A stretch of DNA of 34,347 nt from the IMG/VR virus record IMGVR_UViG_2718218396_000008, one strand, 5' to 3'. The notes beneath the pieces are model-generated. The model did not search any database, was not told where the DNA came from, and saw only the letters and a program-made list of their open reading frames with translations. Shown here piece by piece: positions 702 through 34,347 of this stretch. Made by a program: the position numbers and the translations under genes. Origin of the DNA: a virus (taxonomy: Duplodnaviria; Heunggongvirae; Uroviricota; Caudoviricetes). Every line of letters begins with the position of its first letter. The first letter of the stretch is position 1.

Positions 702-3616
702 TATGCAAGCCTCACAATGTAGTTAAATGCGATGTTTTTGACAGTGTTTTCCGCGTTACCCGCAGCGTTAACGGTGATGGTGTGTCCATGTGAGCCAATC
801 GCAACAGAGTGCGTATGAGCACCAATACCGACAGTATGTGCGTGAGCACCTGCAGATGCAGCTGTGCCGCTGACACTATGAGTGTGCGCTCCTGCAGCAC
901 TTGTATTCACACTGGCCGCAGACACTACCTTATGTACTGACCCATTTTGTGACCACTGGCTGACTGCTGATGCGCCTGTGACACTATGAGTATGGTTTCC
1001 GGCACTTGCGGCTGTACCGCTCACACTGTGCGTGTGCGCCCCGGTGTTATTCGTGGATTTAGTGCCGTAATCAAACGACGATGTGGTTTTCGTCCCCAAA
1101 TCCGTACTGGATGCGCTGGCGCTGTGGGTGTGCGATTTAATGCCGTCCTGTTCCTGAGACAATACGGCCCGACCACTGGCAGGTTTGCCCTTAATCGTCC
1201 AGCCACGCATATCAGGGATCACGCCTGACGGATAAGCGGCTGCAAGTTTCGGGTATGCAGATTTGTCAAAAGTCTGCCCCTGCATCAGGGCATAGCCAGA
1301 CGGAACGGTATCTGATGGCCACGGGATTGGTGCGCCAGGCGGATAAAACTGCTCTGATGGCGTATAGAGTGAATAAACTGTACCGTCCGTTAACCCTTCC
1401 GGCTTATTAGCAGAATATGCTGGTGACGTATGAATCGTCACGCTGGCATTACTGGTATAATCCCATTGAATATTTACACCAGTCGCATAATTTCCGATTG
1501 CAACGTAAATATCGTAAGTATCACCAGATGTATTGACCCAGGCAAAATTTGTAAACCCTGTCGATGTGCGCTGCCATAAAGCACCAGTAATCCCCTTCGG
1601 ATTACCATTACCTGCACGCAAAACAAGTTCAGATATACCTGCCTGTTGAGGTGACCCCACGTTAAATCCCGCGCCACCAATCAACGTAATTGAAACAACA
1701 GAACTCGCCTGTGGCATGGTTACCGTTGCTAATTTGAACCAACCAGCACCACCGCTGAATGACATTGTTGTTGAGTTAAGCGTACCAATATCTTTCGGCG
1801 TCAGTGTTATATCCGATGAAAGCGCCTTACCATTCACCTTACGGGCAGAAGGTACCCGACCATTCGCATTATCATTAGCTGCTTTCACTGCTTTCGGTGT
1901 CGCGGCAAGCGTTTCAGATGCGCTGTTGGTTGCACTACTGAGCTGGACAATTCCTTTTTGTGCTGTCGTAGCGTCCTGAGCAGTATATTTCCCGTTAGCA
2001 AGGTCATAGGCTGCCTTTACCGACTTTGGCGTTGCCGCCAGCATTTCAGATGTGCTGTTGGTCGCGTTGCTAAGCTGAACTATCCCTTTCTGTGCTGTCG
2101 TTGCATCCTGTGCGGTGTATTTCCCGTTAGCCAGCTCATACGCGGCCTTAACGGCTTTTGGCGTTGCCGCCAGTGACTCGGAAGTGCTGTTAGTCGCACT
2201 GCTGAGCTGTACTATCCCCTTTTTCGTCGTGCTCGCATCCTCAAGCGCCACGGCGGATGCAATATCCTCTGCCCGTTTTGCCGCTGTCTCAGCGCGCGTT
2301 GCTGCAGATTCCGCCGTACTTTTGCTCTGAGCTGCTGCCGTCGCACTACCAGCTGCCTCTGTCGCCTTCGTGGATGCCGTCGTGGCGCTGCTCTTCGCTG
2401 CTGACGCTTGTCTGGTCGCCTCATCTTTTGAAGCAGACGCAGATGATGCCGATGACGCCGCCGAACTGGCTGACGATGCGGCAGCCGTTTTTGAGGATTC
2501 TGCGCTGGTTTCCGACGCTTTCGCGTTCGTTTCGGATGTCTTCGCTGCGGAAGCAGAACTCGCTGCTGCGCTGGCCTGTTCAGTGGCTTCGCCAGCCTTC
2601 GTTGTGGCTGTTGAAGCAGACGATGCGGCACTTTCTGCCGATTTTCCGGCGGCGGTGGCACTGGCTGAGGCCTGCCCGGCACTTGTTGACGCGGCACTGG
2701 CAGATAATGCAGCCGCTGTTTTTGAGCCTGCTGCTGCGGAGGCACTCTGTTCTGCTGCCGTTTCAGAGGACTTAGCGTTTGTCTCAGACGTTTTGGCCGC
2801 CTTCGCGGAATTGCCTGCCGCCGTTGCCGAGGAGGCTGCACTACTGGCGCTCGAGGCTGCGCTCGTTTCTGATGATTTTGCCGCCTCTTTTGAAGCCGAC
2901 GCATCCCTGGCTGAGGAGGCAGCTTCTGACGCTTTCGTGGTCGCGGTGGATGCAGAAGTGGCGGCTGATTGTTGTGACACTGCCGCATTCGTTTCTGACG
3001 TTTTCGCCGCACCGGCACTGGTAGCCGCCGCGCTTTTTGAGGACTCTGCAGCGGCAGCACTTTTTGATGCTTCAGTAGCCTTTGTTGATGCCGTTCCTGC
3101 GCTGGAAGACGCTGACTGAGCCGACGACGCGGCCTGTCCGGCTGACGTGCTGGCTGCGCGTGCTGAGTCCGCAGCATCAGTCGCATGGGTTGCCGCCTCA
3201 CGGGCTGATGTGCTGGCATCGCTGGCTGACTTCTTCGCGGCTGCCGTGTTCTGTGCCACCGCGGACGCGTTACGCGCCACCTCTTCCACCATCAGCTCAA
3301 AACGGCGCAGTGCCTCCGGACGGACATCATCCTCAGTCATGGCACCAAGAAAATCATTCAGCGTACCGGGTTGAGAATCTTCATACACGGTGATGGTCCC
3401 GGCATGTGACGGCGGGAACCCTTCCACCAACAGAATAACGCTGTACTGACCGTACTCAACGTCCATGCTGTAACGCCCGGCTTCATCCGGATTTTCTGAG
3501 GCCAGCGTGTTCACCACCACCGTGGTACTGTTACGTTTTGCTTTCAGCTGGATTGTGCAGTTCTGTACCGGTTTTCCTGTGCCGTCTTTCAGTACACCTG
3601 AAATCTTTACTGCCAT
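701..3616 (-). CDS. stf: Side tail fibre protein Stf (long variant, ~971 aa from the ATG)
   Basis: N-terminus [26 protein letters not shown] and C-terminus ...[11 protein letters not shown] match lambda Stf (orf-401/orf-314); Ala/Ser-rich central region and His-rich HxH repeats near the C-terminus. Track start 3622 is GTG; ATG at 3616 matches the lambda N-terminus. Confidence 0.9.
1891..2235. repeat. About three tandem copies of a 132-bp (44-codon) repeat inside stf
   Basis: Direct repeats visible in the DNA at ~1891, ~2024 and ~2155 (period 132 bp); protein unit [44 protein letters not shown] repeated three times. Confidence 0.8.
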
Positions 3617-3626
3617 ATTCACCCCA

Positions 3627-3654
3627 CAAAAAAGCCCGCCTGAACCGGCGGGCT
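3627..3654 (-). terminator. Intrinsic terminator downstream of lom
   Basis: - strand: GC-rich 7-8 bp stem (AGCCCGCC / GGCGGGCT, loop TGAACC) followed by TTTTTT; lies between the lom stop (3681) and the stf start. Confidence 0.5.
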
Positions 3655-3680
3655 GTCATAACACTGTGTTACCTAGCTAA

Positions 3681-4280
3681 TCAGAATTTATAACCAACAC
3701 CCACGATGAACCCGTCAGTGCGCCAGTCACCACTGCCAGAACCTTCATAAGCAATATCAATGGCCACGGATTCGGTCGGGTTAAACTGCACGCCAGCCCC
3801 CCACGCCAGAGACGTGTTGCTGTGGCGACCGTCATCACTTCCGGTCAGCACATCGTGCGTTTTCCCCTTGTTGTCAGTTACGCGAAGGTAATCCCCGGAA
3901 AAAGTCGAAACACGGCTGTAAGCCATACCCGCCATCGCATACGCGCTGAACCATTCATTCACGCGCACAGACGGCCCCGCCATCACGCTGAACCAGCGGT
4001 TACGCACGGAATCTTCATGCCAGCGGGTATCGCTGTAACGGGTCAGCTGGCGATTCTTGTCTCCTGCATAGCTGAATGACGTCACCAGCCCCAGCGTATC
4101 CGTAAACTCATAACGGTATTTCACGTTAATCCCGTTCAGATCATCACTGCCGGGAACGTTGGTCCGGGCATGAAGATACCCCGCGCTCAGCGTGGACTGA
4201 TGTTCAGATGCCCATGCAGGCGCACCGGATACGGCCAGACAAATGGCTGCGGACAAAATGGCGGCATAAAGTTTACGCAT
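3681..4280 (-). CDS. lom: Outer-membrane protein Lom (Ail/Lom/OmpX family), signal peptide present
   Basis: 199-aa ORF with N-terminal signal sequence and C-terminus ...DIAYEGSGSGDWRTDGFIVGVGYKF, recognised as lambda Lom. Confidence 0.93.
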   Translation of the reverse strand: MRKLYAAILSAAICLAVSGAPAWASEHQSTLSAGYLHARTNVPGSDDLNGINVKYRYEFTDTLGLVTSFSYAGDKNRQLTRYSDTRWHEDSVRNRWFSVMAGPSVRVNEWFSAYAMAGMAYSRVSTFSGDYLRVTDNKGKTHDVLTGSDDGRHSNTSLAWGAGVQFNPTESVAIDIAYEGSGSGDWRTDGFIVGVGYKF

Positions 4281-4304
4281 AATTACCTCTCGCTTTTCTG
4301 CAAT

Positions 4305-4328
4305 AAAAAAGGCGTCATTTCTGACGCC
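4305..4328 (-). terminator. Intrinsic terminator between J and lom
   Basis: - strand: stem GGCGTCA/TGACGCC with short loop followed by TTTTTTATT; 18 nt after the J stop. Confidence 0.5.
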
Positions 4329-4346
4329 CGTTCTGGGTTATAAAAT

Positions 4347-7748
<3,402 letters not shown>

Positions 7749-7767
7749 TCATGCTCCATAAACGATA

Positions 7768-7787
7768 AAACCGCCCGGAGGCGGTTT
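7768..7787 (-). terminator. Hairpin between I and J (weak terminator-like element or RNA structure)
   Basis: AAACCGCC-CGGA-GGCGGTTT perfect 8-bp stem; on the - strand followed by a TTTTATCGTTTAT tract. Confidence 0.25.
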
Positions 7788-7805
7788 CACATAAAACATT
7801 TTGCA

Positions 7806-8477
7806 TCAGCGACCAATCACCACAACCTGACCACCGTCCCCTTCGTCTGCCGTGCTGATCTCTTGAGAAACCACGCGTGACCCCACGCGCATTTCACCGT
7901 ACAGAACCGGCAGAACATTGCCCTGGGCAACCATGTTATCCAGTGAGGAGAAATAGGTGTTCTGTTTGCCGTTATCCGTTGTCTGTGTACGGGGAGTTCT
8001 GGCTTTCGGTGCCAGCATCTGCGCCACACCACCGAGCACCATACTGGCACCGAGAGAAAACAGGATGCCGGTCATACCACCGGCCCCAATGGCTGCCCCC
8101 CATGCTGCAAGGGTGGCTCCGGCGGTAAAGAATGATCCGGCAATGGCGGCAGCCCCCAGGACAATCTGGAATACGCCACCTGACTTGGCCCCGGCGACTC
8201 TGGGAACAATATGAATCACAGCGCCATCAGGCAGAGTCTCATGTAACTGCGCCGTTAACCCGGACGTGCTGACGTCCCGCCCGGTAATCCGTACCTGATA
8301 CCAGCCGTCGCTCAGCTTCTGACGAAACACCGGGAGCTGTGTGGCCAGTGCGCGGATGGCTTCAGCCCCCGTTTTCACACGAAGGTCGATGCGGCGGCCA
8401 AATCGTTGCAAATCCCCGTAAAGGCAGATGCGCGCCATGCCCGGTGACGCCAGAGGGAGTGTGTGCGTCGCTGCCAT
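7806..8477 (-). CDS. I: Tail assembly protein I
   Basis: 223-aa ORF, same length as lambda gpI; Gly/Ala-rich hydrophobic centre; recognised sequence. Confidence 0.93.
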   Translation of the reverse strand: MAATHTLPLASPGMARICLYGDLQRFGRRIDLRVKTGAEAIRALATQLPVFRQKLSDGWYQVRITGRDVSTSGLTAQLHETLPDGAVIHIVPRVAGAKSGGVFQIVLGAAAIAGSFFTAGATLAAWGAAIGAGGMTGILFSLGASMVLGGVAQMLAPKARTPRTQTTDNGKQNTYFSSLDNMVAQGNVLPVLYGEMRVGSRVVSQEISTADEGDGGQVVVIGR

Positions 8478-9118
8478 TTGTCGGTATACCTCTCTCGTTT
8501 GCTCAGTTGTTCAGGAATATGGTGCAGCAGCTCGCCATCACCACAGTAAATGGCGGCATGATTCGGCACCGATGAACCAAAACAGCACAGCAGCACATCG
8601 CCCGGTTGTGCTGATGACAACGGCACCTGATACAGCCCTGTGGCCTCCAGATTATCCAGATAGAGATTCTGACCGTGACGCCACCAGTCATCCTCGCGAT
8701 GAAAATCCGGCATCTCAATCCCCGCCAGATGATAAGCATCCCGGAACAGCGTGTAACAGTCCGTCACCCCGTGCTCAAAGCGCCGCCCGGTGAGATGCGG
8801 CACACAGCGGAACTTATGAATCGTCCCCCGGCAGACCAGCCACCACGGCAAATCACTCTGCACCTGCAGCCGCCGGTCGGCCTCACTCAGCCAGGGCAGA
8901 CCACCGGGGTGGCTGTGGACCAGCGCCACAATCTCACCCTGCATTTCTGCCTGCAGCCAGTCTTCCGGCGACATACGGAAATACGCCTCCGGCTCACCGG
9001 AGATATTCACGCAGGGGAAATATCTTTCCCCCTCCGGCGTGCTTACCACGAAGCCGCACGACTCCGCTGGCGCACATCGCCGGGCGTGCGCCAGAATCGC
9101 TGATTCTGTCTGTGTCAT
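8375..9118 (-). CDS. K: Tail assembly protein K (MPN/JAMM-like N-domain plus NlpC/P60-like C-domain)
   Basis: 247-aa ORF starting MTQTESAILAHARRCAPAESCGF; HSH...D motif then Cys/His (DCYTL ... NHAAIY); 3' end overlaps I by ~103 nt in another frame. Confidence 0.9.
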   Translation of the reverse strand: MTQTESAILAHARRCAPAESCGFVVSTPEGERYFPCVNISGEPEAYFRMSPEDWLQAEMQGEIVALVHSHPGGLPWLSEADRRLQVQSDLPWWLVCRGTIHKFRCVPHLTGRRFEHGVTDCYTLFRDAYHLAGIEMPDFHREDDWWRHGQNLYLDNLEATGLYQVPLSSAQPGDVLLCCFGSSVPNHAAIYCGDGELLHHIPEQLSKRERYTDKWQRRTHSLWRHRAWRASAFTGICNDLAAASTFV

Positions 9119-9123
9119 GGGAT

Positions 9124-9822
9124 TTACTGCGAAAGTTTGTTAATGGAAAGGAAGCCGCCAAAGTTGCCGACGTTATTGCGGAACTTACAACCGCTCAGGC
9201 ATTTGCTGCATTTATCCTTCGTGATATCGGACGTTGGCTGGTCATATTCATCCGCGACCGCCGGACCGTGATAACCGCACTCATCGCCGCGATAGGTCCA
9301 GGTGCAGGTGTTGGCCAGCATGATACGTCCCGGAAAAACAGCGCCGTCCGTTTCCGTCGGCGTGGACAGTACAAAAGAGGCACTCACCGCGCTCAGTTCG
9401 CTGCACTGCTCAATGCGCCAGCGGCTGATCACCTCCTGCTCCGGATCGGCGTCACTGTTTCCGTTGACGAAGTTCACCGCATCCAGAAAACGGGCGTAAA
9501 CCTTACGCCGGACCACCGTTCCGCCGACCAGACTCTGCAGATCTTCCGCCATCCCGGTGACCATACCGTACAGGTTAGAAACCGTCAGCGTGGGGCGCGT
9601 ACTGGTGCCTTTGCCATTCAGTTCAAAACCACTCCCCTGAATGGGATACGGCTGATACTGTCGCCCCTGCCAGGTGACCGGCTCACCTTTTTCGTTCTGC
9701 TCATTACAGAAAAAATAACGTTCTCCACCGACCTCTGTCAGATCGATTTCCCAGAGCACCACGCTGGCCGACTGCTCCGCACGGGTGCATTCATTCAGTG
9801 TTTCCTGCCGGATATCCTGCAT
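9124..9822 (-). CDS. L: Tail tip assembly protein L
   Basis: 232-aa ORF, lambda gpL length; Cys cluster near the C-terminus (CSKCLSGCKF). Confidence 0.93.
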   Translation of the reverse strand: MQDIRQETLNECTRAEQSASVVLWEIDLTEVGGERYFFCNEQNEKGEPVTWQGRQYQPYPIQGSGFELNGKGTSTRPTLTVSNLYGMVTGMAEDLQSLVGGTVVRRKVYARFLDAVNFVNGNSDADPEQEVISRWRIEQCSELSAVSASFVLSTPTETDGAVFPGRIMLANTCTWTYRGDECGYHGPAVADEYDQPTSDITKDKCSKCLSGCKFRNNVGNFGGFLSINKLSQ

Positions 9823-14291: not shown

Positions 14292-14687
14292 TCACATTTC
14301 ATAGGTAATGACATAAGTCAGATCGGCTGAACTCCACAGGCCCGCATCATCGTCGCGCCGGTAGTCATAGCCACTGGCCACCATACTGGTGATCAAATCT
14401 GATAGTGCCGGGATATCGCTCATCACCGGATAAATCCGGGACTCCATCCACGCATCCAGCTCTGAATCCGGCACCTGAGCAGGCAGGAAAACTTCGATAT
14501 GCAGCTCCGCCTGCCAGGTATCGCTGTCCAGCTCTTCGCCCGTGTATTCAGCGCCGGTGAGATAAACGGCAACTGCCGGAAAATCCGCCTCATCAAAAAC
14601 AGCGGGGCGACCATCAAAAAACGTCGCCCCGGTGTCATGCTTCTCCAGTGCATCCAGTACGGCTGCACGGAGTTCAGTATGTTTCAT
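14292..14687 (-). CDS. U: Tail terminator protein U
   Basis: 131-aa ORF, lambda gpU length and recognised sequence. Confidence 0.93.
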
Positions 14688-23047: not shown

Positions 23048-23290
23048 TGTTCATTCCACGGACAAAAACAGAGAAAGGAAACGACAGAGGCCAAAAAGCC
23101 CGTTTTCAGCACCTGTCGTTTCCTTTCTTTTCAGGGGGTGTTTTAAATAAAAACATTAGGTTACGGCGAAGAAGAACGGAAACGCCTTAAACCGGAAAAT
23201 TTTCATAAATAGTGAAAAACCGCGAGGTCGCCGCCCCGTAACCTGTCGGATCGCCGGAAAGGACCCGCAAAATGATAATAATTATCATCT
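23048..23290 (-). other. cos site region (cosB between Nu1 and cosN; cosQ side and an AT-rich palindrome beyond cosN)
   Basis: Located immediately upstream of Nu1; contains the lambda cohesive-end sequence and the palindrome ATGATAATAATTATCAT at 23272-23288. Confidence 0.8.
23225..23236 (-). other. cosN: 12-nt cohesive end (GGGCGGCGACCT on the coding strand)
   Basis: Plus-strand AGGTCGCCGCCC at 23225-23236 is the reverse complement of the lambda cohesive end; flanked by CGCG and CGTAACCTGTCGGATC as at the lambda genome ends. Confidence 0.85.
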
Positions 23291-25288: not shown

Positions 25289-25314
25289 GAGCTGCCCATC
25301 GATATGGGCAGCTC
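25289..25314. terminator. Bidirectional terminator hairpin at the bor/Rz convergent junction
   Basis: Perfect 26-bp palindrome GAGCTGCCCAT-CGAT-ATGGGCAGCTC between the bor stop (25282) and the Rz stop (25314). Confidence 0.55.
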
Positions 25315-25775
25315 TATCTGCACTGCTCATTAATATACTTCTGGGTTCCTTCCAGTTGTTTTTGCATAGTGATCAGCCTCTCTCTGAGGGTGAAATAATC
25401 CCGTTCAGCGGTGTCTGCCAGTCGGGGGGAGGCTGCATTATCCACGCCGGAGGCGGTGGTGGCTTCACGCACTGACTGACAGACTGCTTTGATGTGCAAC
25501 CGACGACGACCAGCGGCAACATCATCATGCAGAGCATCATTTTCAGCTTTCGCATCAGCTAACTCCTTCGTGTATTTTGCATCGAGCGCAGCAACATCAC
25601 GCTGACGCATCTGCATGTCAGTAATTGCCACGTTCGCCAGCTTCAGTTCTCTGGCATTTTTGTCGCGCTGGGCTTTGTAGGTAATGGCGTTATCACGGTA
25701 ATGATTAACAGCCCATGACAGGCAGACGATGATGCAGATGAGCAGAGCGGAGATAATCGCGGTTATTCTGCTCAT
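25314..25775 (-). CDS. Rz: i-spanin Rz
   Basis: 153-aa ORF with N-terminal TM segment and coiled-coil region; recognised as lambda Rz. Confidence 0.93.
25373..25555 (-). CDS. Rz1: o-spanin Rz1 (lipoprotein gene embedded in the +1 frame of Rz)
   Basis: 60-aa ORF wholly inside Rz; lipobox VVVGC and proline-rich [15 protein letters not shown], as lambda Rz1. Confidence 0.88.
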
Positions 25776-26248
25776 ACCTCACTCTCTCTGACCGTTCCGC
25801 CAGCTTCTTTGAATTTTGCAATCAGGCTGTCAGCCTTATGCTCGAACTGACCATAACCAGCGCCCGGCAGTGAAGCCCAGATATTACTGCAACGGTCGAT
25901 TGCCTGACGGATATCACCGCGATCAATCATAGGTAAAGCACCACGCTCTTTAATCTGCTGCAATGCCACTGCGTCCTGGCTTTTGGGGGAGAAGTCTTTC
26001 AAACCAAGCTGTTTACGGTAAGCATCCCACCAGCGTGAAAGAAGCTGATAACGTCCGGCGGCTGTTGATTTGAGTTTGGGGTGTAGCGTGACAAGTTTGC
26101 GAGGGTGATCGGAGTAATCAGTAAACAGTTCGCCGCCAACAATAACATCATAACCGTGGTTACGTGTCGGTTGTCGCCCGTTATCCGTTCCTTCTGACCA
26201 CGCCAACATATCGAGGAAGGCTTTACGCTGAGGATTAAGATTTTGCAT
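25772..26248 (-). CDS. R: Endolysin R (lytic transglycosylase)
   Basis: 158-aa ORF; core sequence from ...[20 protein letters not shown] onward matches lambda R. Confidence 0.93.
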
Positions 26249-26540
26249 TTTTCACCCCTGTCAGTCGTTCCCAGAAGTACGTCAGTGCAACCGAACCCAT
26301 CGCACCACTAATCCCCGCTGTCGCGAGAATCATGTAAATACTGAATCCACTTTCGATGCTGATCAGGCCACCAATAACACCGGTGAATCCTGATACCACT
26401 ATTTGAGCCAGAGCATTTATCCAACTCCACGTTGCTTTACTCTGCTTCACATCTATCAGGTAGCGGACCAGACCGCCCCAACCTGCGATGATCAGCAAAA
26501 CGAGCCAGAACGCTCCGGCAAGGCTCTCTTTTTCGTGCAT
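26235..26540 (-). CDS. Putative holin, non-lambda S type (three predicted TM helices); start uncertain (TTG 26552 or ATG 26540)
   Basis: ORF immediately upstream of and overlapping R; three hydrophobic segments and a charged C-terminal tail; no similarity to lambda S105/S107 as recalled. Confidence 0.65.
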   Translation of the reverse strand: MHEKESLAGAFWLVLLIIAGWGGLVRYLIDVKQSKATWSWINALAQIVVSGFTGVIGGLISIESGFSIYMILATAGISGAMGSVALTYFWERLTGVKNAKS

Positions 26541-26758
26541 ATGAATAGCCAATGTTTCGCCGCCGACAAAAGGCCGGGACGTTAAATGTCAGAAATCAGG
26601 CTCACGGGGTAATTTAACGACAAAGCACGGAGTTGATGCTCCCCACAAGCCTGGAATAAAAAAGCCAGCATGTAGCTGGCAACAGAGGGCTAAGCAATAT
26701 CAACTCAACAGCTGAAGACCCCCTGGCTGGGGTAGGTTGGAAGGCTACTCACCGTTCA

Positions 26759-26794
26759 GAAACAGAAAAGCCCAAGGCTTTAAACCTCGGGCTT
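26759..26794 (-). terminator. Intrinsic terminator between the Q-position gene and the lysis genes (tR'-like)
   Basis: - strand: 10-bp stem AAGCCCGAGG / CCTTGGGCTT (one G-U pair), loop TTTAAAG, followed by TTTCTGTTTCTG. Confidence 0.55.
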
Positions 26795-26849
26795 GAATTT
26801 GGATTACTGCCAGTGCGTACAACATTGGCAAAATATCAGATTTACATAA

Positions 26850-26878
26850 AATATATGATTTTTAATCCAGTTTTGCAA
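26850..26878 (-). promoter_or_regulatory. Candidate late promoter (pR'-like): -35 TTGCAA, 17-bp spacer, -10 TATATT
   Basis: Read on the - strand overlapping the stop of the Q-position ORF; predicted transcript of ~85 nt ends at the 26759-26794 terminator. Confidence 0.35.
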
Positions 26879-27539
26879 TATCTTGCTGTGAAAATGTGGT
26901 CTTTTGTTTTGAACGTGTTTTCGTTAAAAGCAATAAAGCTTGGCTATCAAGCTGTAGAAAAATGTGTTTCATTGCAACCCAGCGTTCAGTAAATGTCTCA
27001 GACCAGTTTTTTGATGTCACTCCCACCAGTGATGCCAGCTCCTGGTATTCATAGGTCTTACGCCCTGCCAGCTCGTTCTTCACATCCTGTGCCGCCAGCC
27101 AGATCAACTTCTTCAAACGTTCCAGTGTCTTACCTGCAATTTTCCTGGTACCCAACAGAGTCTTAAACTCGCTCCATGCCCACTGCGTTATGGTGACCTG
27201 ATGTTCCCAGCGAACACTTTCGCTGTAACTCCACAGCAACCACGCTTTCTGATGTTCTTCGAGAGACAGAACCGCGCGGCGCCATGACGAGGTTGAGAAC
27301 TCAACCTGGCTGACCAGTGCAATGGATGAACCTTTTGCGTACGACTGCTTACCGGAAATCGGCGGATTATCCAGCGTAATCATCCTGCCAGTTACCTCAT
27401 CCAGAATGCGCGGCTTCTTTCGTTTGTATGTACCAGTATCAAATTGTGCATGCTCCAGCCAGGCTTCAAGCTGTCCTTTCGTTGCTCCGCTCAAATCAGC
27501 GGTATAACCTGTGTTCTCGCCATACCTTCCAGCGCGCAT
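26862..27539 (-). CDS. Q-position protein: putative late-gene regulator/antiterminator of non-lambda type (about 225 aa; start uncertain)
   Basis: Occupies the slot between the nin genes and pR'/lysis genes; HTH-like segment TYEYQELASLVGVTSKNWSETF; no Cys zinc-ribbon; track ORF extends to 27650 but overlaps ybcO. Confidence 0.4.
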   Translation of the reverse strand: MRAGRYGENTGYTADLSGATKGQLEAWLEHAQFDTGTYKRKKPRILDEVTGRMITLDNPPISGKQSYAKGSSIALVSQVEFSTSSWRRAVLSLEEHQKAWLLWSYSESVRWEHQVTITQWAWSEFKTLLGTRKIAGKTLERLKKLIWLAAQDVKNELAGRKTYEYQELASLVGVTSKNWSETFTERWVAMKHIFLQLDSQALLLLTKTRSKQKTTFSQQDIAKLD

Positions 27540-27763
27540 TCTTTTGCATATGCAGCATCGACAAAATGTGTGCGGCGGTCGATTTCGTCGTGGCAGGCAG
27601 AACATGCAATGGTGGCAATCAAGTCTGGCGGTTTGGTACCGGTGCCGCACAATCCAGTCAGCCGGATATGTGCCAGTACAGACGTTTCAGGGTTGCCATT
27701 ACATACGCCAGGGATTCTTACTTGGCATTCCCGACTACGCGCTGCTTTTCTCAAATCAGCCAT
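27491..27763 (-). CDS. ybcO: DUF1364-type nin-region protein (YbcO-like, Cys-rich putative nuclease)
   Basis: ATG at 27763 preceded by AGGAGGAATC; MADLRKAARSRECQVRIPGVCNGNPETSVLAHIRLTG... recalled as YbcO; track start 27802 is TTG. Confidence 0.7.
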   Translation of the reverse strand: MADLRKAARSRECQVRIPGVCNGNPETSVLAHIRLTGLCGTGTKPPDLIATIACSACHDEIDRRTHFVDAAYAKECALEGMARTQVIPLI

Positions 27764-27926
27764 GATTCCTCCTTGCTGCCAGTCGCAACCATTTTTTATC
27801 AACCAGGCTGGCGGTATATCCGAGCAGTGTTGGTATTTCGGATGGCTTCAGCTCAGGTTTACGCTTACGACGATTTGGTACTTTGTAGATGTGTCCGTTC
27901 ATGACACGAATAAGCGGTGTAGCCAT
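27756..27926 (-). CDS. ninE: NinE-like small basic protein (56 aa; not in the ORF track)
   Basis: Manually translated [56 protein letters not shown]; ATG overlaps the ybcN stop (TAATG) and its TGA overlaps the ybcO ATG (ATGGCTGA). Confidence 0.65.
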   Translation of the reverse strand: MATPLIRVMNGHIYKVPNRRKRKPELKPSEIPTLLGYTASLVDKKWLRLAARRNHG

Positions 27927-28381: not shown

Positions 28382-28476
28382 GCTTCACCTCCGCAGAGAT
28401 CAAACGCTGGATGCAAGACATCGCAGGTGCATTTCTGCATCTGTGACAAGGTAAGGAGTTCAGATTGTGGTCGCAT
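28378..28476 (-). CDS. ylcH: Small ORF (32 aa, YlcH-like) translationally coupled to ybcN
   Basis: Manually translated [32 protein letters not shown]; RBS AAGGGGA upstream; stop TGA overlaps the ybcN GTG (GCGTGAAC). Confidence 0.45.
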
Positions 28477-28500
28477 TTAAGTCCCCTTAAATGCGCAGAA

Positions 28501-28529
28501 GTCACCGGAGTTGTTCAAGCTCCGGTGAC
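28501..28529 (-). terminator. Stem-loop upstream of the nin operon (tR2-like position); weak U-tract
   Basis: Perfect 10-bp inverted repeat GTCACCGGAG-(9 nt)-CTCCGGTGAC. Confidence 0.35.
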
Positions 28530-28571
28530 ATTATTATGGAAGGTTGATACTAAAAAATCAAAAATTGAATA

Positions 28572-28763
28572 TCATTGGCGATAGTCTAGCTTGTGATATC
28601 CACAAGCTACTTCAATGAAGCGACGAGTAACATTTTGTGTCATCCATGTTTTTTCAGTTAAGTGCCACACCCAGTTCAAAATTTGCTGATGTGTTGAACA
28701 TGTACTAAGCGGGATGTTGTATTCATAAGCAACATTGATTCCGCAAAATCGGTGTCGTGTCAT
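28572..28763 (-). CDS. Hypothetical 63-aa ORF (possible gene remnant)
   Basis: ORF without a convincing Shine-Dalgarno; no recognisable family; sits where DLP12 carries ybcL/ybcM. Confidence 0.25.
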   Translation of the reverse strand: MTRHRFCGINVAYEYNIPLSTCSTHQQILNWVWHLTEKTWMTQNVTRRFIEVACGYHKLDYRQ

Positions 28764-28882
28764 GACCGATTCACGTTGACCTGCGCCCTGTTGAGTGCCT
28801 GGGGATATTCTTGCTCGATAGTTAATATCATAGTAGTTACTTTACTTTCATACCATAGCACGGTTGAAAAAGTGATTATTAC

Positions 28883-30409
28883 TCAAAAATAAACCTCACC
28901 ATCAACCATATATTTGAGAGCACTTATCGCCTGCTGGGCGGATATTACTTTCATTAAAGGATAGTGTTTAAAAACAATGCCATTCATAAAATAGATATCA
29001 CAGGTTTTATTATCCGTATTAATTATGATTTTTTCGAATATTTTATAGGCAAGTGTACGGCATAACTCTCGTCCATTTTTACTGGTTAAGTCAATAGCAT
29101 AAAAATCACTGAATGAATTTACACCTTTACTCTTCAAAGTTTTCAATGATACCAAAGCTCTTCGTAATTCCTTATCTAATAGTCTTATTTTCTCTGCTAT
29201 AGCGGTAACTTCAGGCGCGACAGACAATGCAACGATTAAATTATTAATTTTCATCTGAAGCTCAATAATTTTTAACTCTAAAGTTTCATTAGCATCTTTC
29301 TTGTTTTCAACTGGTTGAATTTTGCTACAATTAAAAAGCAATTCATTAATGATATTATAATCAACCAAATCTCTCTTTATTGATGGCCTGTCACATCGAT
29401 GTAATCTTCTCATCGGACAAACATAATAGCCATGCAAACTTCCAGATACCGCATGAACAATCATGGTATTACCACAAGCCTCACACTTCATAACTGTTCG
29501 AAGTAGATTTATTAGCATAGGATTCTTGCTACTATTGCTAATACCAAAAGGTGCCAACCGAATTTCCTGTACAGCGTAAAACAAATCATCTGATATGACT
29601 CTGGGATAATAGCCAGCGATTTCACTTATCCCTTTCCCTCTTGCACGATATGAAGGTACGCATATACCTATCAGAGCTTTATTCGCTAATAATTTTTCAA
29701 TTACAGAAGGCCCCCATGCACTTTCTTTTCCTGAGAAATTCTTTACAGCATGATCATTTAAATACTTGGCTATTGCATTCAATGAGCGCCTTTCCATCCT
29801 GAGTTTAAAAATTAGCTCAATAGTTTTCACCCTGTCGGGGTCTGGAACAAAAGCCGTTCTTTTGTCATCTAAGGAGAGCCATCTCGGACAAGACGCCGTC
29901 ATAATCGTACCTGATTCCAGTGCATCCTGCCGTTTTTTCTTCCATGATAATTTAACCCGACTTGACTTTATCTCGCTTTCTTCATTTGCCCTTTGTGCTA
30001 TAAGTATGGCTTTTATTAATGAATATGGCTCATTCAAAGAGTCAATATTATAGACTGTATTGTCGCAAAGAGTTATAACATCAATACCGTGATTCAAAAT
30101 CAATTTCAGACGTTCAATCGCTTCACCGACTTTTTCTCTTGAAAGTCTGTCCAGACTTTCAACTAACAATGTAGTTCCTGGCAATATATAACCATGCTCT
30201 ATAGCATCTAAAAATTCCGAAAAAGCTCCTGATTGTGCATGCTTTCCTTTGAATGCACTTAATCCTAAATCTTCATATGTTATGGTATCAAGATAATAAT
30301 CACTATTTACCTTTAACCATTCAGCAATAAGTCTTCTCTGTCGGTTTAATGAGTCGCCAGACATCTGACCTGGTGATGAAAATCGCATATATGCTATGGC
30401 TTTTTTCAT
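28883..30409 (-). CDS. ybcK: Large serine recombinase (YbcK-like, 508 aa)
   Basis: N-terminal resolvase-type catalytic motif (AIAYMRFSSPGQ...R), recombinase domain, Cys zinc ribbon (CEACGNTMIV...YYVCPMRRLHRC) and C-terminal coiled coil; ATG at 30409 with AGGTG SD; AT-rich gene. Confidence 0.85.
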   Translation of the reverse strand: MKKAIAYMRFSSPGQMSGDSLNRQRRLIAEWLKVNSDYYLDTITYEDLGLSAFKGKHAQSGAFSEFLDAIEHGYILPGTTLLVESLDRLSREKVGEAIERLKLILNHGIDVITLCDNTVYNIDSLNEPYSLIKAILIAQRANEESEIKSSRVKLSWKKKRQDALESGTIMTASCPRWLSLDDKRTAFVPDPDRVKTIELIFKLRMERRSLNAIAKYLNDHAVKNFSGKESAWGPSVIEKLLANKALIGICVPSYRARGKGISEIAGYYPRVISDDLFYAVQEIRLAPFGISNSSKNPMLINLLRTVMKCEACGNTMIVHAVSGSLHGYYVCPMRRLHRCDRPSIKRDLVDYNIINELLFNCSKIQPVENKKDANETLELKIIELQMKINNLIVALSVAPEVTAIAEKIRLLDKELRRALVSLKTLKSKGVNSFSDFYAIDLTSKNGRELCRTLAYKIFEKIIINTDNKTCDIYFMNGIVFKHYPLMKVISAQQAISALKYMVDGEVYF

Positions 30410-30653
30410 GGTGACACCTGCTAACTTATGCTTTTATAAACCTTAGTGGTGAGATATAATTTTTGTTTAATTTTTATTTAAAAAGACAATTACGATCACA
30501 CTATCTTGAATATACAACAATAATCGTATTGCAATTTGCTTACGCAATAATCTTGAAGGCACAAAAGAATACACAAAAACTAAAAACATTAACAAAAGCG
30601 GCCCATGTAAAGATATGAACCGCCATATTGCAGTCTTTTAAAAGAAATTATTT

Positions 30654-30986
30654 TTAATGTGGTGTGCTTCGTGACAATAAATTAATAACCAACACACCGG
30701 CACAAATCAACATCATGCCTATAACGGCTGGCAGGTCCAGCCGTTGGCCGAAAAACCCCCATGATAGTAAGCTAATCAGGACAATACCGACTCCTGACCA
30801 GATAGCATAAGCAATCCCTGTAGGAATATAAGCCAGCGTCTGAGCTAATAACCAGAATGATGCACAATAACAAATAATTGTACCAACAGATGGCCATAAC
30901 CGTGTAAAACCTTCTGAAAACTTCATTAAGGTTGTACCAATGACCTCTGCAAGTATTGCACCACCAAGATAAATATAAGGGTTCAT
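30654..30986 (-). CDS. emrE: Small multidrug resistance (SMR) efflux transporter EmrE
   Basis: 110 aa from internal ATG (MNPYIYLGGAILAEVIGTTLMKFSEGF..., four TM helices, conserved Glu14); recognised as E. coli EmrE. Confidence 0.92.
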   Translation of the reverse strand: MNPYIYLGGAILAEVIGTTLMKFSEGFTRLWPSVGTIICYCASFWLLAQTLAYIPTGIAYAIWSGVGIVLISLLSWGFFGQRLDLPAVIGMMLICAGVLVINLLSRSTPH

Positions 30987-31053
30987 AACATATTCTTTCC
31001 TGTTCAAACTGGAGAGAATTGTACTACAGTTTGAACTCAACTCACCTGTTTCA

Positions 31054-31356
31054 TCATTGTGTACCCATTGATGTTCTTTTATATACCCTCAATACCCGTT
31101 TCATCGCGGCACTCTGGCGACACTCCTTAAAAATCAGATTCGTGCTCACCTTTCCTTCCCGTTCTTCTCTGGTAGCGAACCGGTAATACACCGTTCGCCA
31201 GACCTTACCATCAACGACCAGGATTCCTGCCCGCGCCATTTTAGCCGCAGCCTGATTTATGCTGGTTACGGTTGCACCTGTTACCGCGGCAACGTCCTGT
31301 GCACAGAAGCTCTTATGCGTCCCCAGGTAATGAATAATTGCCTCTTTGCCCGTCAT
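31054..31356 (-). CDS. ren: Ren protein (Rex exclusion protection)
   Basis: 100-aa ORF MTGKEAIIHYLGTHKSFCAQDVAAVTGATVTSINQAAAKMARAG, lambda Ren; start overlaps the P stop. Confidence 0.88.
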   Translation of the reverse strand: MTGKEAIIHYLGTHKSFCAQDVAAVTGATVTSINQAAAKMARAGILVVDGKVWRTVYYRFATREEREGKVSTNLIFKECRQSAAMKRVLRVYKRTSMGTQ

Positions 31357-32054
31357 ACACTTGCTCCTTTCAGTCCGAACTTAGCTTTAATTTCTGCGAT
31401 CTTCGCCAGAGCCTGTGCACGATTTAGAGGTCTACCGCCCATAACAGGAAGTTGTTTTACTGGTTCAGGTATCGTCTCACCACGGTTAATTCGCGCTGTC
31501 ATACAGGTCAGTTCATCGGCAGCCTTGCGCCGTAATTCCGCGTCAGTCAGCGCATTGGCCCGCATGTTCTGGTACAAGTTGGTAACCAACCAGTAATGCG
31601 CGTTCGATTTCCACGGATAAGACTCTGCATCCGGATACAGGCCACGCTTCCGGCAATACTCGTAAACCATATCAACCAGCTCGCTGACGTTTGGCAGTCC
31701 GGCGATAACGGATGCTTCTTCCCGGCACCATGCAACAAACTGCCCGGGTGATGGCAGAAATGGTCGATTCTGCCGACGGGCTACGCGCATTCCTGCGTTA
31801 ACCTGTTCCATTGTGGTGATCCCGTTTTCCCGGAAAGCCAGAACCCACTGGCGGCGGATTTCGTTCAGTTCGTTCTGGTCACGGTTAGCCAGACTCGCCG
31901 GGAAAGTTGCCAGTAACTGGCTGAACACACCGTTGATGATCTGCGCTACCTGCTGTACCTGCGGCTTTTCGTCGTACTGTTCCGGCATGTTGTTGGCGAT
32001 CCGACGCATCTGCTCACGGTCAAAGTTAACCATCTGTGCGGCGATGTTTTTCAT
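31353..32054 (-). CDS. P: Replication protein P (DnaB helicase loader)
   Basis: 233-aa ORF MKNIAAQMVNFDREQMRRIANNMPEQYDEKPQ..., lambda P length and sequence. Confidence 0.95.
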   Translation of the reverse strand: MKNIAAQMVNFDREQMRRIANNMPEQYDEKPQVQQVAQIINGVFSQLLATFPASLANRDQNELNEIRRQWVLAFRENGITTMEQVNAGMRVARRQNRPFLPSPGQFVAWCREEASVIAGLPNVSELVDMVYEYCRKRGLYPDAESYPWKSNAHYWLVTNLYQNMRANALTDAELRRKAADELTCMTARINRGETIPEPVKQLPVMGGRPLNRAQALAKIAEIKAKFGLKGASV

Positions 32055-32875
32055 AAATCCACCCCGTAAATCCAGTCAGTGTTTGTCAGGTCGAGTTTTG
32101 GTTTGCTGGCTATCATGCCTGCCTGTTGCTTGTTACGGTTGATTTCGAGCTGGGTCCACTTGTCGCGGAGTTTGGCCGGACTTAGCACGTTACCGGACCA
32201 GAAGTTGTCCTGGCATGCCCAGCGGAACAGCACGCACATGTCGCGGTGGTTACGTCCGTCACGTTCACGCATCAGGCGGATATCGTTAGCCCACCCTGCA
32301 AAATTCGGTTTTCTGGCTGATGGCGCGATGGTCTTCACCATGTCAAACATCCACTCTGCGGCGGTCAGGTCTTCTGCTGTCCCCCACTTGCTGCCGCTCT
32401 GAATTGCAGCATCCGGTTTCACCACAGGAAGATCGTTTTCTGGTTGGTCAGAGGATTCGCCAGAATTCTCGGACGAAAAAGGTTTTATATTGTCTTTTGT
32501 TAGTTTGTCTTTTGTGTTTACCTGATTCGGGTAAACGCCTTTACCTGATTTGGGTAAACTTTTTTTACCTGATTCAGGTAAATTTACCTCTTTCAGGTAA
32601 ACTTTATTTTTCTTACCTGATTCGGGTAATGTTGACCATTCACTGACCACATTATTAATGCCGGTATTCCGCCCGCTCTGAATAAAAATCCCACGCTTTA
32701 CCAGAACACTTTTTGCAGCAGAACACTTGTGCGGCAATATCCCGGTTAATTCGGAAAGTTGCTCGTTGCTAACCCAATCCAGTTTTTTATTAAAGCCATA
32801 TGTTTTGCGCATGACAGCCAGAAAGACCAGAAGCTGGTGAAAAATTGATAAATTCAATACTGCATTTCTCAGCAT
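32051..32875 (-). CDS. O: Replication initiator O (lambda-like C-terminal half; divergent and shorter N-terminal DNA-binding part, possibly 5'-truncated)
   Basis: C-terminal ~150 aa (SSDQPENDLPVVKPDAAIQSGSKWGTAEDL...TNTDWIYGVDL) match lambda O; in-frame stop 8 codons upstream of the first ATG; N-terminus ~35 aa shorter than lambda O. Confidence 0.8.
   Translation of the reverse strand: MLRNAVLNLSIFHQLLVFLAVMRKTYGFNKKLDWVSNEQLSELTGILPHKCSAAKSVLVKRGIFIQSGRNTGINNVVSEWSTLPESGKKNKVYLKEVNLPESGKKSLPKSGKGVYPNQVNTKDKLTKDNIKPFSSENSGESSDQPENDLPVVKPDAAIQSGSKWGTAEDLTAAEWMFDMVKTIAPSARKPNFAGWANDIRLMRERDGRNHRDMCVLFRWACQDNFWSGNVLSPAKLRDKWTQLEINRNKQQAGMIASKPKLDLTNTDWIYGVDL
32518..32630. repeat. Replication origin iterons (five ~18-19 bp copies of TTACCTGATTCGGGTAAAC-like repeats) inside O, with adjacent AT-rich tract at ~32470-32517
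   Basis: Five direct repeats, each an internal inverted repeat (TTACCYGA...TCRGGTAA); they encode the repeated PESGKK/LPKSGK linker of O. Confidence 0.8.
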
Positions 32876-32978
32876 TAAATTTATCTCTATGACCAGTCAA
32901 GAGATGTACCTGCCATGAGCTTAATATCATGTCAGATATATCGGTCACAAACTCCCTCAGCAGCTAAGAGGAGGACAA

Positions 32979-33215
32979 ATGTCTCGACTAATCACTTTAC
33001 GGGACTGGGCTAAAGAAGAATTTGGGGACTTAGCACCAAGTGAGCGAGTTCTGAAAAAATACGCGCAAGGGAAAATGATGGCCCCACCCGCTATAAAAGT
33101 TGGTCGCTACTGGATGATTGACCGAAATTCCCGTTTTGTAGGAACGCTTGCAGAACCGCAACTCCCAATAAACGCAAACCCAAAACTCCAACGGATAATC
33201 GCTGATGGCTGCTAG
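32979..33215 (+). CDS. Putative excisionase / small DNA-binding protein (non-lambda Xis type)
   Basis: 78-aa ORF with strong SD (AAGAGGAGG) immediately upstream of int and overlapping it by 11 nt. Confidence 0.5.
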   Translation: MSRLITLRDWAKEEFGDLAPSERVLKKYAQGKMMAPPAIKVGRYWMIDRNSRFVGTLAEPQLPINANPKLQRIIADGC

Positions 33216-34347
33216 CCCCCGATCTCACAAAATCTCTATACCCAATTTATATTGCAAATTAGATAAGCGAACCGGAAAGGTATATTGGCAATACAAACAT
33301 CCACTATCCGGTCGTTTTCATAGCTTAGGAACTGATGAGAATGAAGCAAAACAAGTTGCTACTGAAGCAAATACCATTATTGCTGAACAACGTACCCGAC
33401 AAATATTAAGCGTCAATGAGCGTCTGGAAAGAATGAAAGGCAGGCGCTCAGACATTACGGTGACAGAATGGCTTGATAAATATAATTCTATCCAGGAGGA
33501 CAGGCTGCAACATAATGAACTAAGACCCAACTCCTATCGGCAAAAAGGCAAACCCATCCGTCTTTTCCGTGAGCATTGTGGAATGCAACACCTCAAGGAT
33601 ATTACCGCACTTGATATTGCCGAAATAATTGATGCTGTAAAGGCTGAAGGTCATAACAGGATGGCGCAAGTCGTGAGAATGGTGTTGATCGACGTCTTCA
33701 AAGAAGCACAACACGCAGGACATGTTCCGCCAGGATTTAACCCAGCGCAGGCAACAAAACAACCGCGAAATCGAGTAAACCGCCAAAGATTATCACTGCC
33801 CGAATGGCAGGCAATATTTGACAGCGTAAGCAGACGGCAGCCCTATTTAAAATGCGGGATGCTACTTGCTCTTGTCACTGGACAACGTTTAAGCGATATC
33901 TGCAATTTGAAATTCTCTGATATCTGGGACGACATGTTGCACATTACTCAGGAAAAAACCGGTTCAAAACTTGCTATTCCGCTTAACCTGAAATGCGATG
34001 CTCTGAATATTACCCTTCGTGAAGTTATATCTCAGTGCAGGGATGCTGTTGTTAGTAAATATCTGGTCCATTACCGTCACACTACCTCTCAAGCAAACAG
34101 AGGAGACCAGGTGTCTGCAAATACTCTTACAACGGCTTTTAAAAAGGCCAGGGAAAAATGTGGCATAAAATGGGAGCAAGGAACTGCGCCCACATTTCAT
34201 GAGCAGCGATCTCTGTCAGAACGGTTATATCGGGAACAGGGTCTGGATACGCAAAAGTTGTTAGGTCATAAATCCAGAAAAATGACCGACCGATACAATG
34301 ATGATCGTGGTAAAGACTGGATTATCGTAGATATCAAAACAGCATAG
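33205..34347 (+). CDS. int: Tyrosine site-specific integrase (lambda Int family)
   Basis: 380-aa ORF; N-terminus MAASPRSHKISIPNLY resembles lambda Int; C-terminal catalytic region HEQRSLSERLY...LLGHKSRKMTDRYNDDRGKDW carries the conserved R...HxxR...Y residues; stop is the last codon of the window. Confidence 0.9.
   Translation: MAASPRSHKISIPNLYCKLDKRTGKVYWQYKHPLSGRFHSLGTDENEAKQVATEANTIIAEQRTRQILSVNERLERMKGRRSDITVTEWLDKYNSIQEDRLQHNELRPNSYRQKGKPIRLFREHCGMQHLKDITALDIAEIIDAVKAEGHNRMAQVVRMVLIDVFKEAQHAGHVPPGFNPAQATKQPRNRVNRQRLSLPEWQAIFDSVSRRQPYLKCGMLLALVTGQRLSDICNLKFSDIWDDMLHITQEKTGSKLAIPLNLKCDALNITLREVISQCRDAVVSKYLVHYRHTTSQANRGDQVSANTLTTAFKKAREKCGIKWEQGTAPTFHEQRSLSERLYREQGLDTQKLLGHKSRKMTDRYNDDRGKDWIIVDIKTA

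Follow-up and report, generated by a model that had tools for sequence, protein, structure and literature searches.

Probable loss of the early region by a single deletion in prophage Sp8 of Escherichia coli O157:H7 strain 7784

Why does a lambda-type O gene lie directly beside xis and int, with no immunity or early-left genes between them? The question is raised by a stretch of 34,347 nucleotides deposited as a Caudoviricetes virus in IMG/VR (IMGVR_UViG_2718218396_000008), which is called here the window. In it, a gap of 103 bp (32876-32978) separates the ATG of an O-like ORF from xis, as the original prediction had stated. That prediction took the arrangement for a deletion-derived cryptic prophage without regulatory input, and the reading is now supported by a base-precise junction and by an intact comparator in UPEC 536. 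We conclude that the window is very probably the lambda-like core of the E. coli O157:H7 prophage Sp8, inserted at icd, in the copy carried by strain 7784, and that its early region was lost by a single non-homologous deletion. Sp8 has reportedly been in the literature since Hayashi 2001. The finding is real but ordinary, and the cryptic prophage reading is supported yet already known. The absence of CI and Cro from Sp8 and the pseudogene flag on O (RefSeq) were both on record; what we add is the base-defined junction, the truncation of O, the status of the junction as an O157 marker and a private deletion affecting Q in strain 7784.

Identification with Sp8 is based on the icd insertion, the lack of CI and Cro, the catalase cargo and the same conserved gene set. 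In the source genome, icd lies 113 bp past the end of the window, where int also ends, and the same is seen in genomes matching the region at 100%. A 217-bp direct repeat of the icd 3' end stands on both sides of the 46-kb element, and an icd remnant pseudogene is found about 46 kb away from icd. Sp8 of strain Sakai is inserted at icd (PMC8190617), measures about 46.9 kb and carries the putative catalase ECs1652 as cargo (PMC2323221, PMC7430833); in the source locus, the gene for a manganese catalase lies beside the tail-fibre end and stops one base short of window position 1. According to the annotation, the part of Sp8 beyond the window, 12 kb long, encodes an acetyltransferase, an HTH_3-cupin regulator, ompT, a hydrolase, ISEc8, a methyltransferase, stress and ferritin-like proteins and the catalase. 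The gene content found here by tblastn and Pfam agrees with the Sp8 row of Table 1 in Asadulghani et al. 2009, who reported that Sp8 lacks CI and Cro as well as general recombination genes, and that int, xis, P, morphogenesis, packaging and lysis genes are conserved (PMC2669165).

The region where O meets the int side contains the following features.

32051-32875, minus strand: ORF containing the O remnant, 274 aa
32051-32839, minus strand: O remnant, a 5'-truncated pseudogene corresponding to residues 48-299 of lambda O and the stop codon
32840-32875, minus strand: twelve chance codons (MLRNAVLNLSIF) linking the O remnant to the ATG; not O sequence
32485-32638, no strand assigned: replication origin within O, with five iteron-like repeats (32517-32638) and an A+T-rich stretch (32485-32514)
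31353-32054, minus strand: P, lambda-type helicase loader, intact; lambda P aa 1-233 at 97.9% (tblastn), Pfam Phage_lambda_P
31054-31356, minus strand: ren, intact; lambda Ren aa 1-92 at 90% (tblastn), annotated 'protein ren'
32839-32840, no strand assigned: deletion junction within the O-like ORF, with a 1-bp overlap (G at 32839)
32840-32978, plus strand: spacer 5' of xis, from the int side, 99.5% identical to ev017; carries the xis ribosome-binding site
32979-33215, plus strand: xis, intact; 98.7% aa identity to ev017 xis over all 78 aa, Pfam Exc
33205-34347, plus strand: int, icd-specific lambda-type tyrosine recombinase, intact, 380 aa; Pfam Arm-DNA-bind_1 and Phage_integrase, 99% aa identity to ev017 int

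The start of O had been placed at the ATG at 32875. The in-frame stop described eight codons 5' of this ATG is present, but there is no homology to O before codon 13 of the ORF, at 32839. O is indeed short at its N-terminus, though by 47 residues in the tblastn comparison with lambda O and not by the roughly 35 first proposed. Residues 48-299 of lambda O align to 32839-32054 with 69% identity, and O of PhiR70_1 with 93% (tblastn). The O remnant covers only positions 28-95 of the 95-position Pfam profile Phage_rep_O (27 of 95 lost), while the full-length O of PhiR70_1 spans positions 1-95. PGAP/RefSeq labels these 789 bp as 'replication protein, incomplete, missing N-terminus', with a pseudogene flag. 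Since at least 47 N-terminal residues are missing, we regard O as a pseudogene. The N-terminal region of lambda O is its DNA-binding domain (PMC6022878); a PDB search for a solved structure of lambda O found no relative, and the role of the 47 missing residues was judged from Pfam coverage and the literature. On these grounds, O is truncated inside its origin-binding domain. A repeat search of the origin recovered an iteron family with five copies of TTTACCTGATTCGGGTAAA-like units and a second, T-rich repeat family. Lambda has four annotated iterons at the equivalent place, against the five iteron-like repeats of the Sp8 window.

The junction was mapped by a three-way comparison of the window with ev017 for the int side and PhiR70_1 for the O side. 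This search against lambdoid genomes, which the original prediction had suggested, located it at 32839/32840. Homology on the O side (PhiR70_1, UPEC 536, lambda) stops at 32839, and homology on the int side (ev017, UPEC 536) begins at the same base, as given by the blastn end points. Intact relatives have a DUF4222 gene in front of xis, and on the int side the shared G is the final letter of its TAG stop codon. Moreover, 32840-32875 is identical, on the opposite strand, to the DUF4222-xis spacer of ev017 and UPEC 536. A hairpin with a 16-bp stem lies at 32847-32885, within the xis spacer.

The repressor, Cro, N, CII and Red-like genes were said to be missing from the window, and tblastn, Pfam and the RefSeq annotation all bear this out. 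A tblastn search with the early proteins of lambda, ev017 and PhiR70_1 found none of cI, cro, cII, N, cIII, kil, gam, bet, exo, rex or sieB in the window; it matched only int, xis, O, P and ren, all others having E values of at least 0.01. No repressor was found in the window by Pfam on intergenic ORFs or by RefSeq annotation of the identical region. The Pfam scan of 149 ORFs of at least 60 aa matched 63 families, 25 of which were listed; for the absence of HTH families it was complemented by tblastn, by the intergenic-ORF scan and by PGAP. Thus, the immunity region of a functional lambdoid phage, with a repressor, Cro and operators between the pL and pR operons, is absent here.

It could be argued that this is a natural and functional layout, in which the immunity region is placed elsewhere in the element and an O with a short N-terminus is active. 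Asadulghani et al. counted replication among the conserved functions of Sp8, scoring it as 'apparently functional' (PMC2669165), and at its cargo end, beyond the window, Sp8 encodes a protein with a Cro/C1-type HTH_3 domain. However, that score conflicts with the O truncation found here, which corrects it, and the HTH protein was rejected as a phage repressor: it has a cupin C-terminus and no peptidase S24 domain, and it is encoded beside the GNAT acetyltransferase gene at the att end distant from O, some 45 kb away. By annotation, the remaining 12 kb of the element hold cargo genes only, with no immunity region. The original prediction had named, as the observation that would count against it, the same short O in an intact phage together with an immunity region elsewhere; the O/xis junction is present in 0 of 50,697 deposited phage records. 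In IMG/VR, a junction probe matched four short contigs, 98.5-100% identical to the window, two of them aligning only in part and none with an intact early region. Sp8 was also inactive in experiments: in Sakai, circularisation, replication and packaging were all absent, with or without mitomycin C (PMC2669165). Given this and the loss of 27 of the 95 conserved-domain positions from O, we consider a functional layout extremely improbable.

An error of assembly or of window construction could also bring O next to xis, and nothing specific speaks in its favour. A 60-bp probe on the O/xis junction matched 296 of 5,426 complete E. coli genomes, assembled independently, at 99% identity or more in 295 of the 296 and identically in 59 of 60 sampled; EDL933 and EC4115 also carry the junction with identical sequence. 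The probability of such an artefact is negligible. Every labelled junction-bearing genome sampled was of serotype O157, and the probe had no match among GTDB representatives (one genome per species). Among the O157 genomes sampled, the junction is thus a fixed marker. CB9615, a progenitor-like O55:H7 strain, has an unoccupied icd site, and an Sp8-like prophage has been reported in the STEC O55:H7 strain 122262.

The loss of the early region by a single non-homologous deletion is best seen against the relatives that kept it. Both ev017 (genus Jouyvirus) and the UPEC 536 icd prophage resemble the window over int, xis and the spacer (99.3-99.5%), and both insert at icd with a replacement icd 3' end. 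They differ in keeping DUF4222, exo, bet, gam, kil, (N), cI, cro and cII-like genes and a full-length O; the two points that meet in the window are 7.1 kb apart in UPEC 536, and in ev017 the distance is about 11.3 kb. In the intact UPEC 536 prophage, which occupies the same icd site, the two breakpoints are 7,084 bp apart, with the flanks in the same order and orientation; this stretch contains the 5' end of O, a gene at the cII position, cro, cI, kil, gam, bet, exo and small ORFs. We propose that the deletion would have joined the base after the DUF4222 gene, 5' of xis, to codon 48 of O, with a deleted length of about 7 kb judged by the UPEC 536 icd prophage or about 11 kb judged by ev017. 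It would have removed pL, pR, pRM, cI, cro, the gene at the cII position, N, cIII, kil, gam, bet, exo, the oop/pO region and at least the first 47 codons of O.

The same junction could have arisen by illegitimate recombination between two lambdoid prophages, int-xis coming from an icd-integrating phage and the segment from O-P-ren-emrE-ybcK to J from a DLP12/PhiR70_1-like phage. The best phage matches do differ by side: int-xis is of the ev017 type (99.5%), while O-P-ren is of the PhiR70_1 type (98.4%), and PhiR70_1 has a different integrase. The pre-deletion ancestor was not found: no genome combined both flanks above 98% with an intact early region between them, the sampled genomes with a 100%-identical O allele (H87-H90) had no match on the int side, and UPEC 536, the closest comparator at the same site, is 94% identical on the O side. 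Because the ancestor is missing and UPEC 536 reaches only 94% there, recombination of two prophages is conceivable. However, different best matches per module are expected in mosaic lambdoid phages, and the order and orientation of the flanks are exactly those of the intact UPEC 536 icd prophage. As a single deletion is more economical, we judge the exchange to be improbable; the outcome would be equal either way.

A comparable loss is seen in DLP12 of E. coli K-12, which shares with the window the backbone order ren-emrE-ybcK-...-ybcN-ninE-ybcO-rusA-ylcG-Q-lysis-bor-ybcV-ybcW-ylcI-nohD...ompT and in which the immunity and early-left region is also deleted. DLP12 differs in lying at argU with another integrase (intD), whereas the element of the window lies at icd. 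Its early deletion kept fragments of exo (exoD) and P (peaD) and removed O entirely; since the end points differ, the two deletions were independent. The head and tail genes, complete in the window, are nearly all gone from DLP12, which contains IS3 and IS5 insertions, ybcL-ybcM and a QuuD-type Q. A reading of the window as a DLP12-type prophage was discarded in view of the icd site, the other int and the complete head and tail genes, only the nin and lysis backbone being common. Compared with lambda, the window is similar in its late proteins (94-100%, J 90%), P (98%), Ren (90%), the same cos and the iteron array within O. It differs in the absence of the immunity, N, Red, cIII and cII regions and in the truncated O; the alleles of int/xis, Q, the holin gene, lom and the nin region are not those of lambda, and the side tail fibre is a single ORF of 973 codons.

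The late half of the window and its control region contain the following features.

120-23236, minus strand: cos, terminase, head and tail genes (Nu1 to Tfa), full length (tblastn with 23 lambda late proteins; Pfam families)
25314-26552, minus strand: lysis cassette of holin, endolysin R and Rz/Rz1, intact; lambda R, Rz and Rz1 full length at 94-97%, holin annotated
26664-26878, minus strand: putative pR'-like late promoter (26850-26878), then two hairpins resembling terminators (26768-26794, 26664-26680), in the interval from Q to the holin gene (pattern scan)
26862-27504, minus strand: antiterminator Q of strain 7784 without its start and first 16 codons, residues 17-229 being fused to out-of-frame ybcO sequence
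27504-27505, no strand assigned: second junction, a 571-bp deletion of the ybcO 3' end, rusA, ylcG and the Q 5' end

The late operon has the lambda order of functional lambdoid phages (cos, terminase, head, tail, lysis), with the cos sequence at 23225-23236. Nu1, A, W, B, C, D, E, FI, FII, Z, U, V, G, T, H, M, L, K, I, J, Tfa, R, Rz and Rz1 match lambda essentially end to end, with 90-100% aa identity. The claim that packaging, head, tail and lysis genes are intact therefore holds by tblastn; in strain 7784, in addition, Q has lost its start, and rusA and ylcG are gone. A functional lambdoid phage carries an intact Q 5' of the late promoter, which strain 7784 lacks. The second deletion was seen when strain 4276 and an IMG/VR contig (L014) were compared with the window by blastn, and a 60-bp probe on its junction matched 1 of 5,426 complete genomes, that of strain 7784. 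It is private to this strain and separates its copy from Sp8 of Sakai. In other O157 genomes Q has 229 aa and was intact in those sampled; PGAP gives a 225-aa variant Q protein present only in strain 7784. The Sp8 Q/qut allele has 2-3 partial matches per O157 genome. The late promoter was assigned to 26850-26878 by position, in analogy with lambda, such sites being no commoner than chance, and the assignment is putative.

The int/xis, O/P and Q genes that remain in Sp8 would be silent. Judging from lambda biology, a repressor would be unneeded because the early promoters are gone. In the absence of pL and of CII-dependent activation of pI, int and xis would not be expressed for excision, although both genes are intact, as are the two att-flanking icd repeats. 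Likewise, O, P and Q would no longer be reached from pR with N readthrough, and O lacks a portion of its origin-binding domain, so neither replication nor Q-driven late transcription would be expected. The late operon would thus be structurally intact and silent in cis, and in strain 7784 the 571-bp deletion would additionally deprive Q of its start codon. Promoter scans of the junction and nin region gave counts at or below the shuffle expectation and are informative neither way; upstream of the O remnant, the scan showed no promoter-like site on the minus strand. Because the scan is at chance level, weak promoters are possible, for example with readthrough from emrE or ybcK towards Q. The inactivity of Sp8 in Sakai (PMC2669165) fits the loss of pL, pR and CII.

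It is tempting to ask whether Sp8 could act as a parts depot, whose full set of cos, head, tail and lysis genes, lambda-identical and placed behind a late promoter dependent on Q, would be turned on in trans by Q from co-resident lambdoid prophages when these are induced, the virion proteins rescuing head-defective neighbours such as the Stx1 prophage Sp15. We consider this speculative and rather unlikely; if true, the early deletion would keep Sp8 from excising, replicating and killing its host. In a weaker variant, the iteron array, together with the O remnant, P and ren, may hinder the replication of superinfecting lambda-type phages. In summary, Sp8 is a prophage that decays step by step with its structural genes still intact, and this bears on complementation among the prophages of O157.

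The replication region ends directly against the integration genes, with the following features at the boundary.

32051..32875, minus strand, O-like ORF of 274 aa, Pfam Phage_rep_O
32979..33215, plus strand, xis, 78 aa, Pfam Exc
33205..34347, plus strand, int, 380 aa, Pfam Arm-DNA-bind_1 and Phage_integrase

The end of int is the final base of the window. The original prediction took this arrangement for a deletion-derived cryptic prophage, with 103 bp (32876-32978) between the O ORF and xis. Re-checking the coordinates gave the same gap, and comparison with intact relatives supports the reading and places the junction. Queried against deposited phage genomes, this region split in two exactly at 32839: up to this base, O-P-ren matches PhiR70_1-type and lambda-type phages; from it onward, ev017-type phages are the match for xis-int and for the spacer in front of xis. 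Both halves occur together in none of 50,697 phage records. Base by base, O-side identity ends after ...GCTGGTG at 32839, and the same G opens the int-side identity; in intact relatives it completes the TAG stop codon of the small DUF4222 gene preceding xis. Since the overlap is only 1 base, the deletion was non-homologous, and no IS element is involved at the junction. In the icd prophage of UPEC 536 the two flanks keep this order and orientation and are separated by 7,084 bp, which hold the O 5' end, a YdaT-domain gene at the place of cII, cro and cI, a pair of hypothetical genes, kil, gam, bet and exo, and five small ORFs of which the DUF4222 gene is the last. The equivalent interval of ev017, ~11.3 kb long, additionally has N, cIII, ral and sieB. 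Sequence comparison shows that the deletion took everything between the xis-upstream spacer and O codon 48. An inverted repeat in this spacer (32847-32885, 16-bp stem, GATAAATTTAATGCTGAGAAATGCAGTATTGAATTTATC) adjoins the junction, spans a chance ATG and is kept in ev017 and UPEC 536.

When the entire window was searched by tblastn with proteins from the early regions of lambda, ev017 and PhiR70_1, the matches were confined to int, xis, O, P and ren, apart from short ones with E>=0.01. In the few gaps between genes, Pfam scanning of ORFs identified DUF3950, DUF1398, Bor, a NinB-like protein and EmrE; HTH and repressor families were absent. Nor does the RefSeq annotation of identical DNA contain a repressor, Cro, N, CII or Red gene. 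The original claim that these are absent from the window is upheld.

What is left of O could be delimited precisely. In tblastn, the part of lambda O that aligns (to 32839..32054) is residues 48-299; 47 N-terminal residues are therefore missing by lambda numbering, or 77 if counted from the longer start annotated for this allele in PhiR70_1 and UPEC 536. The Phage_rep_O match starts at profile position 28 of 95, the full-length O of PhiR70_1 matching 1-95, and PGAP annotates exactly the 789 bp of remaining O as an incomplete replication protein without its N-terminus. The DNA-binding domain of O has been assigned to its N-terminal region (PMC6022878). Translation does show the in-frame stop 8 codons upstream of the ATG at 32875. 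However, this is not the first ATG of O that it had been taken for, because the ORF's 12 N-terminal codons (MLRNAVLNLSIF) come from the spacer upstream of xis, translated from its other strand, and the loss exceeds the ~35 residues first estimated. These details of O need correction, but the substance of the prediction is right. Asadulghani et al. graded Sp8 O and P as apparently functional (PMC2669165); the sole discrepancy with the literature is this grading of an O that is truncated according to both the junction analysis and PGAP. The origin is kept, with five iteron-like repeats (32517-32638; four are annotated in lambda) and a T-rich stretch (32485-32514). P is full length with 98% identity to lambda P, and 92 of 96 Ren residues align to lambda Ren at 90% identity.

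When 23 lambda late proteins were aligned to the window, 21 (Nu1, A, W, B, C, D, E, FI, FII, Z, U, V, G, T, H, M, L, K, I, J and Tfa) matched over practically their whole length, with 90-100% identity. Lom aligned end to end at only 45%, and of the 401-residue lambda side tail fibre query, residues 1-286 aligned. Full-length matches were also obtained for R, Rz, Rz1 and Bor, and the lambda cohesive-end sequence GGGCGGCGACCT lies at 23225-23236, upstream of nu1. The claim of intact packaging, head, tail and lysis genes thus holds, with Lom and the side tail fibre as qualified. The latter (701-3622) is one 973-codon ORF, unlike the split lambda stf (orf-401 and orf-314). At 26235-27650, Q (Pfam PF06323) and the holin are non-lambda alleles amid lambda-identical structural genes and R/Rz, which is a typical mosaic boundary. 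Pattern matching placed a promoter-like site and then two terminator-like hairpins between Q and the holin gene, the layout expected of a pR'/tR' region, which by position they would putatively form.

Positions 31300-34347 are found at 100% identity in many complete E. coli O157:H7 chromosomes, where icd lies 113 bp from int. In O157 strain 4276, 217 bp from the icd 3' end are directly repeated (97% identical) on both sides of a ~46-kb element running from an icd remnant pseudogene beside iraM to icd. Of this element the window represents the lambda-like core, and the other 12 kb are cargo. Besides ompT and ISEc8, the cargo end (L002, the strain 4276 locus, 1-8324; locus L006, 13148-17001) encodes an alpha/beta hydrolase, a fragment of a tail-fibre-assembly gene, a methyltransferase where DLP12 has ybcY, stress and ferritin-like proteins, a manganese catalase, and a GNAT acetyltransferase alongside an HTH_3-cupin regulator. 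Sp8, a 46,897-bp prophage (PMC7430833), is inserted at icd (PMC8190617) and bears the putative catalase ECs1652 (PMC2323221). In size, site and cargo the element agrees with Sp8 of Sakai; it is this known prophage. The HTH_3-cupin regulator, the only helix-turn-helix protein of the entire element, was rejected as a CI-type repressor, being at the far att end, outside the window and paired with the acetyltransferase. O157 ompT is carried by Sp8, as K-12 ompT is by DLP12.

A 60-bp probe over the O/xis junction matched 296 of 5,426 complete E. coli genomes, each half alone being widespread (~2,700 genomes). All serotype-labelled genomes among 60 sampled carriers are O157, EDL933 and EC4115 included. 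The probe had no match in GTDB species representatives, and IMG/VR gave four, all short contigs whose alignments to the window have 98.5-100% identity. The junction occupies 298 places in the 296 genomes, so at least one and at most two O157 genomes have it twice, which suggests duplication of the region. In O55:H7 CB9615 the icd site is empty, with iraM directly after icd (L009, its icd locus, 7601-9277). Its Icd protein has the same accession as that of O157, and thus the phage-supplied icd 3' end differs only synonymously.

DLP12 of K-12 is the nearest separately named relative of Sp8. They share the backbone ren-emrE-ybcK...ybcN-ninE-ybcO-rusA-ylcG-Q...bor-ybcV-ybcW-ylcI-nohD...ompT, and both have lost the early region. 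The deletion end points differ, exo and P fragments persisting in DLP12, which unlike Sp8 also lacks head and tail genes. The two are related phages in parallel, independent decay. Between ren and the nin genes (28883-31040) lie emrE (multidrug efflux) and a 508-aa serine recombinase, ybcK; as DLP12 and the deposited phage PhiR70_1 have the same layout, emrE is phage-borne cargo. Both also have ybcL-ybcM (and ylcH) between ybcK and ybcN, whereas the window has none of these. Positions 28382-28882 hold only ~500 bp with a 99-bp hypothetical ORF and a hairpin of 12-bp stem (28501-28529), so that nin-region cargo differs here too.

Relative to strain 4276 and to an IMG/VR contig, 571 bp are missing from the window at 27504, which affects 26862-27802. 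The lost segment comprises the last ybcO codons, the whole of rusA and ylcG, and the Q start with its first 16 codons. A 60-bp probe over this junction matched 1 of 5,426 complete genomes, that of strain 7784 (NZ_CP018247.1), which marks this strain as the source of the window and in which the Q annotated by PGAP is a 225-aa variant whose N-terminus is foreign; in the 30 other O157 genomes among the matches listed, both flanks are 100% identical and 571 bp wider apart. Without the Q start and first 16 codons, the late-gene activator is compromised too in the strain 7784 copy. In strain 4276, tail gene U is frameshifted (L002 22616-23010), and the window U (14295-14687) is intact and 100% identical to lambda U. 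Separate O157 strains are accumulating separate, private Sp8 lesions.

Int and xis are intact, as are both att repeats, ori, P and the late operon. Sp8 has been reported to give no circular form, no replication and no packaging of its DNA, whether mitomycin C is added or not (PMC2669165). From lambda regulation we infer the steps of silencing. Loss of pL and of the CII-activated pI would leave int and xis unexpressed, and loss of pR and N-dependent readthrough would do the same for O, P and Q. The truncated O would probably be unable to bind the iterons and, without Q, the late transcript would halt at terminators past pR'. With the early promoters gone, a repressor would be unneeded. O157 genomes contain 2-3 partial matches each to the Q/pR' region, with a possible bearing on trans-activation. 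The element is a grounded prophage, with a late operon structurally intact but unpowered.
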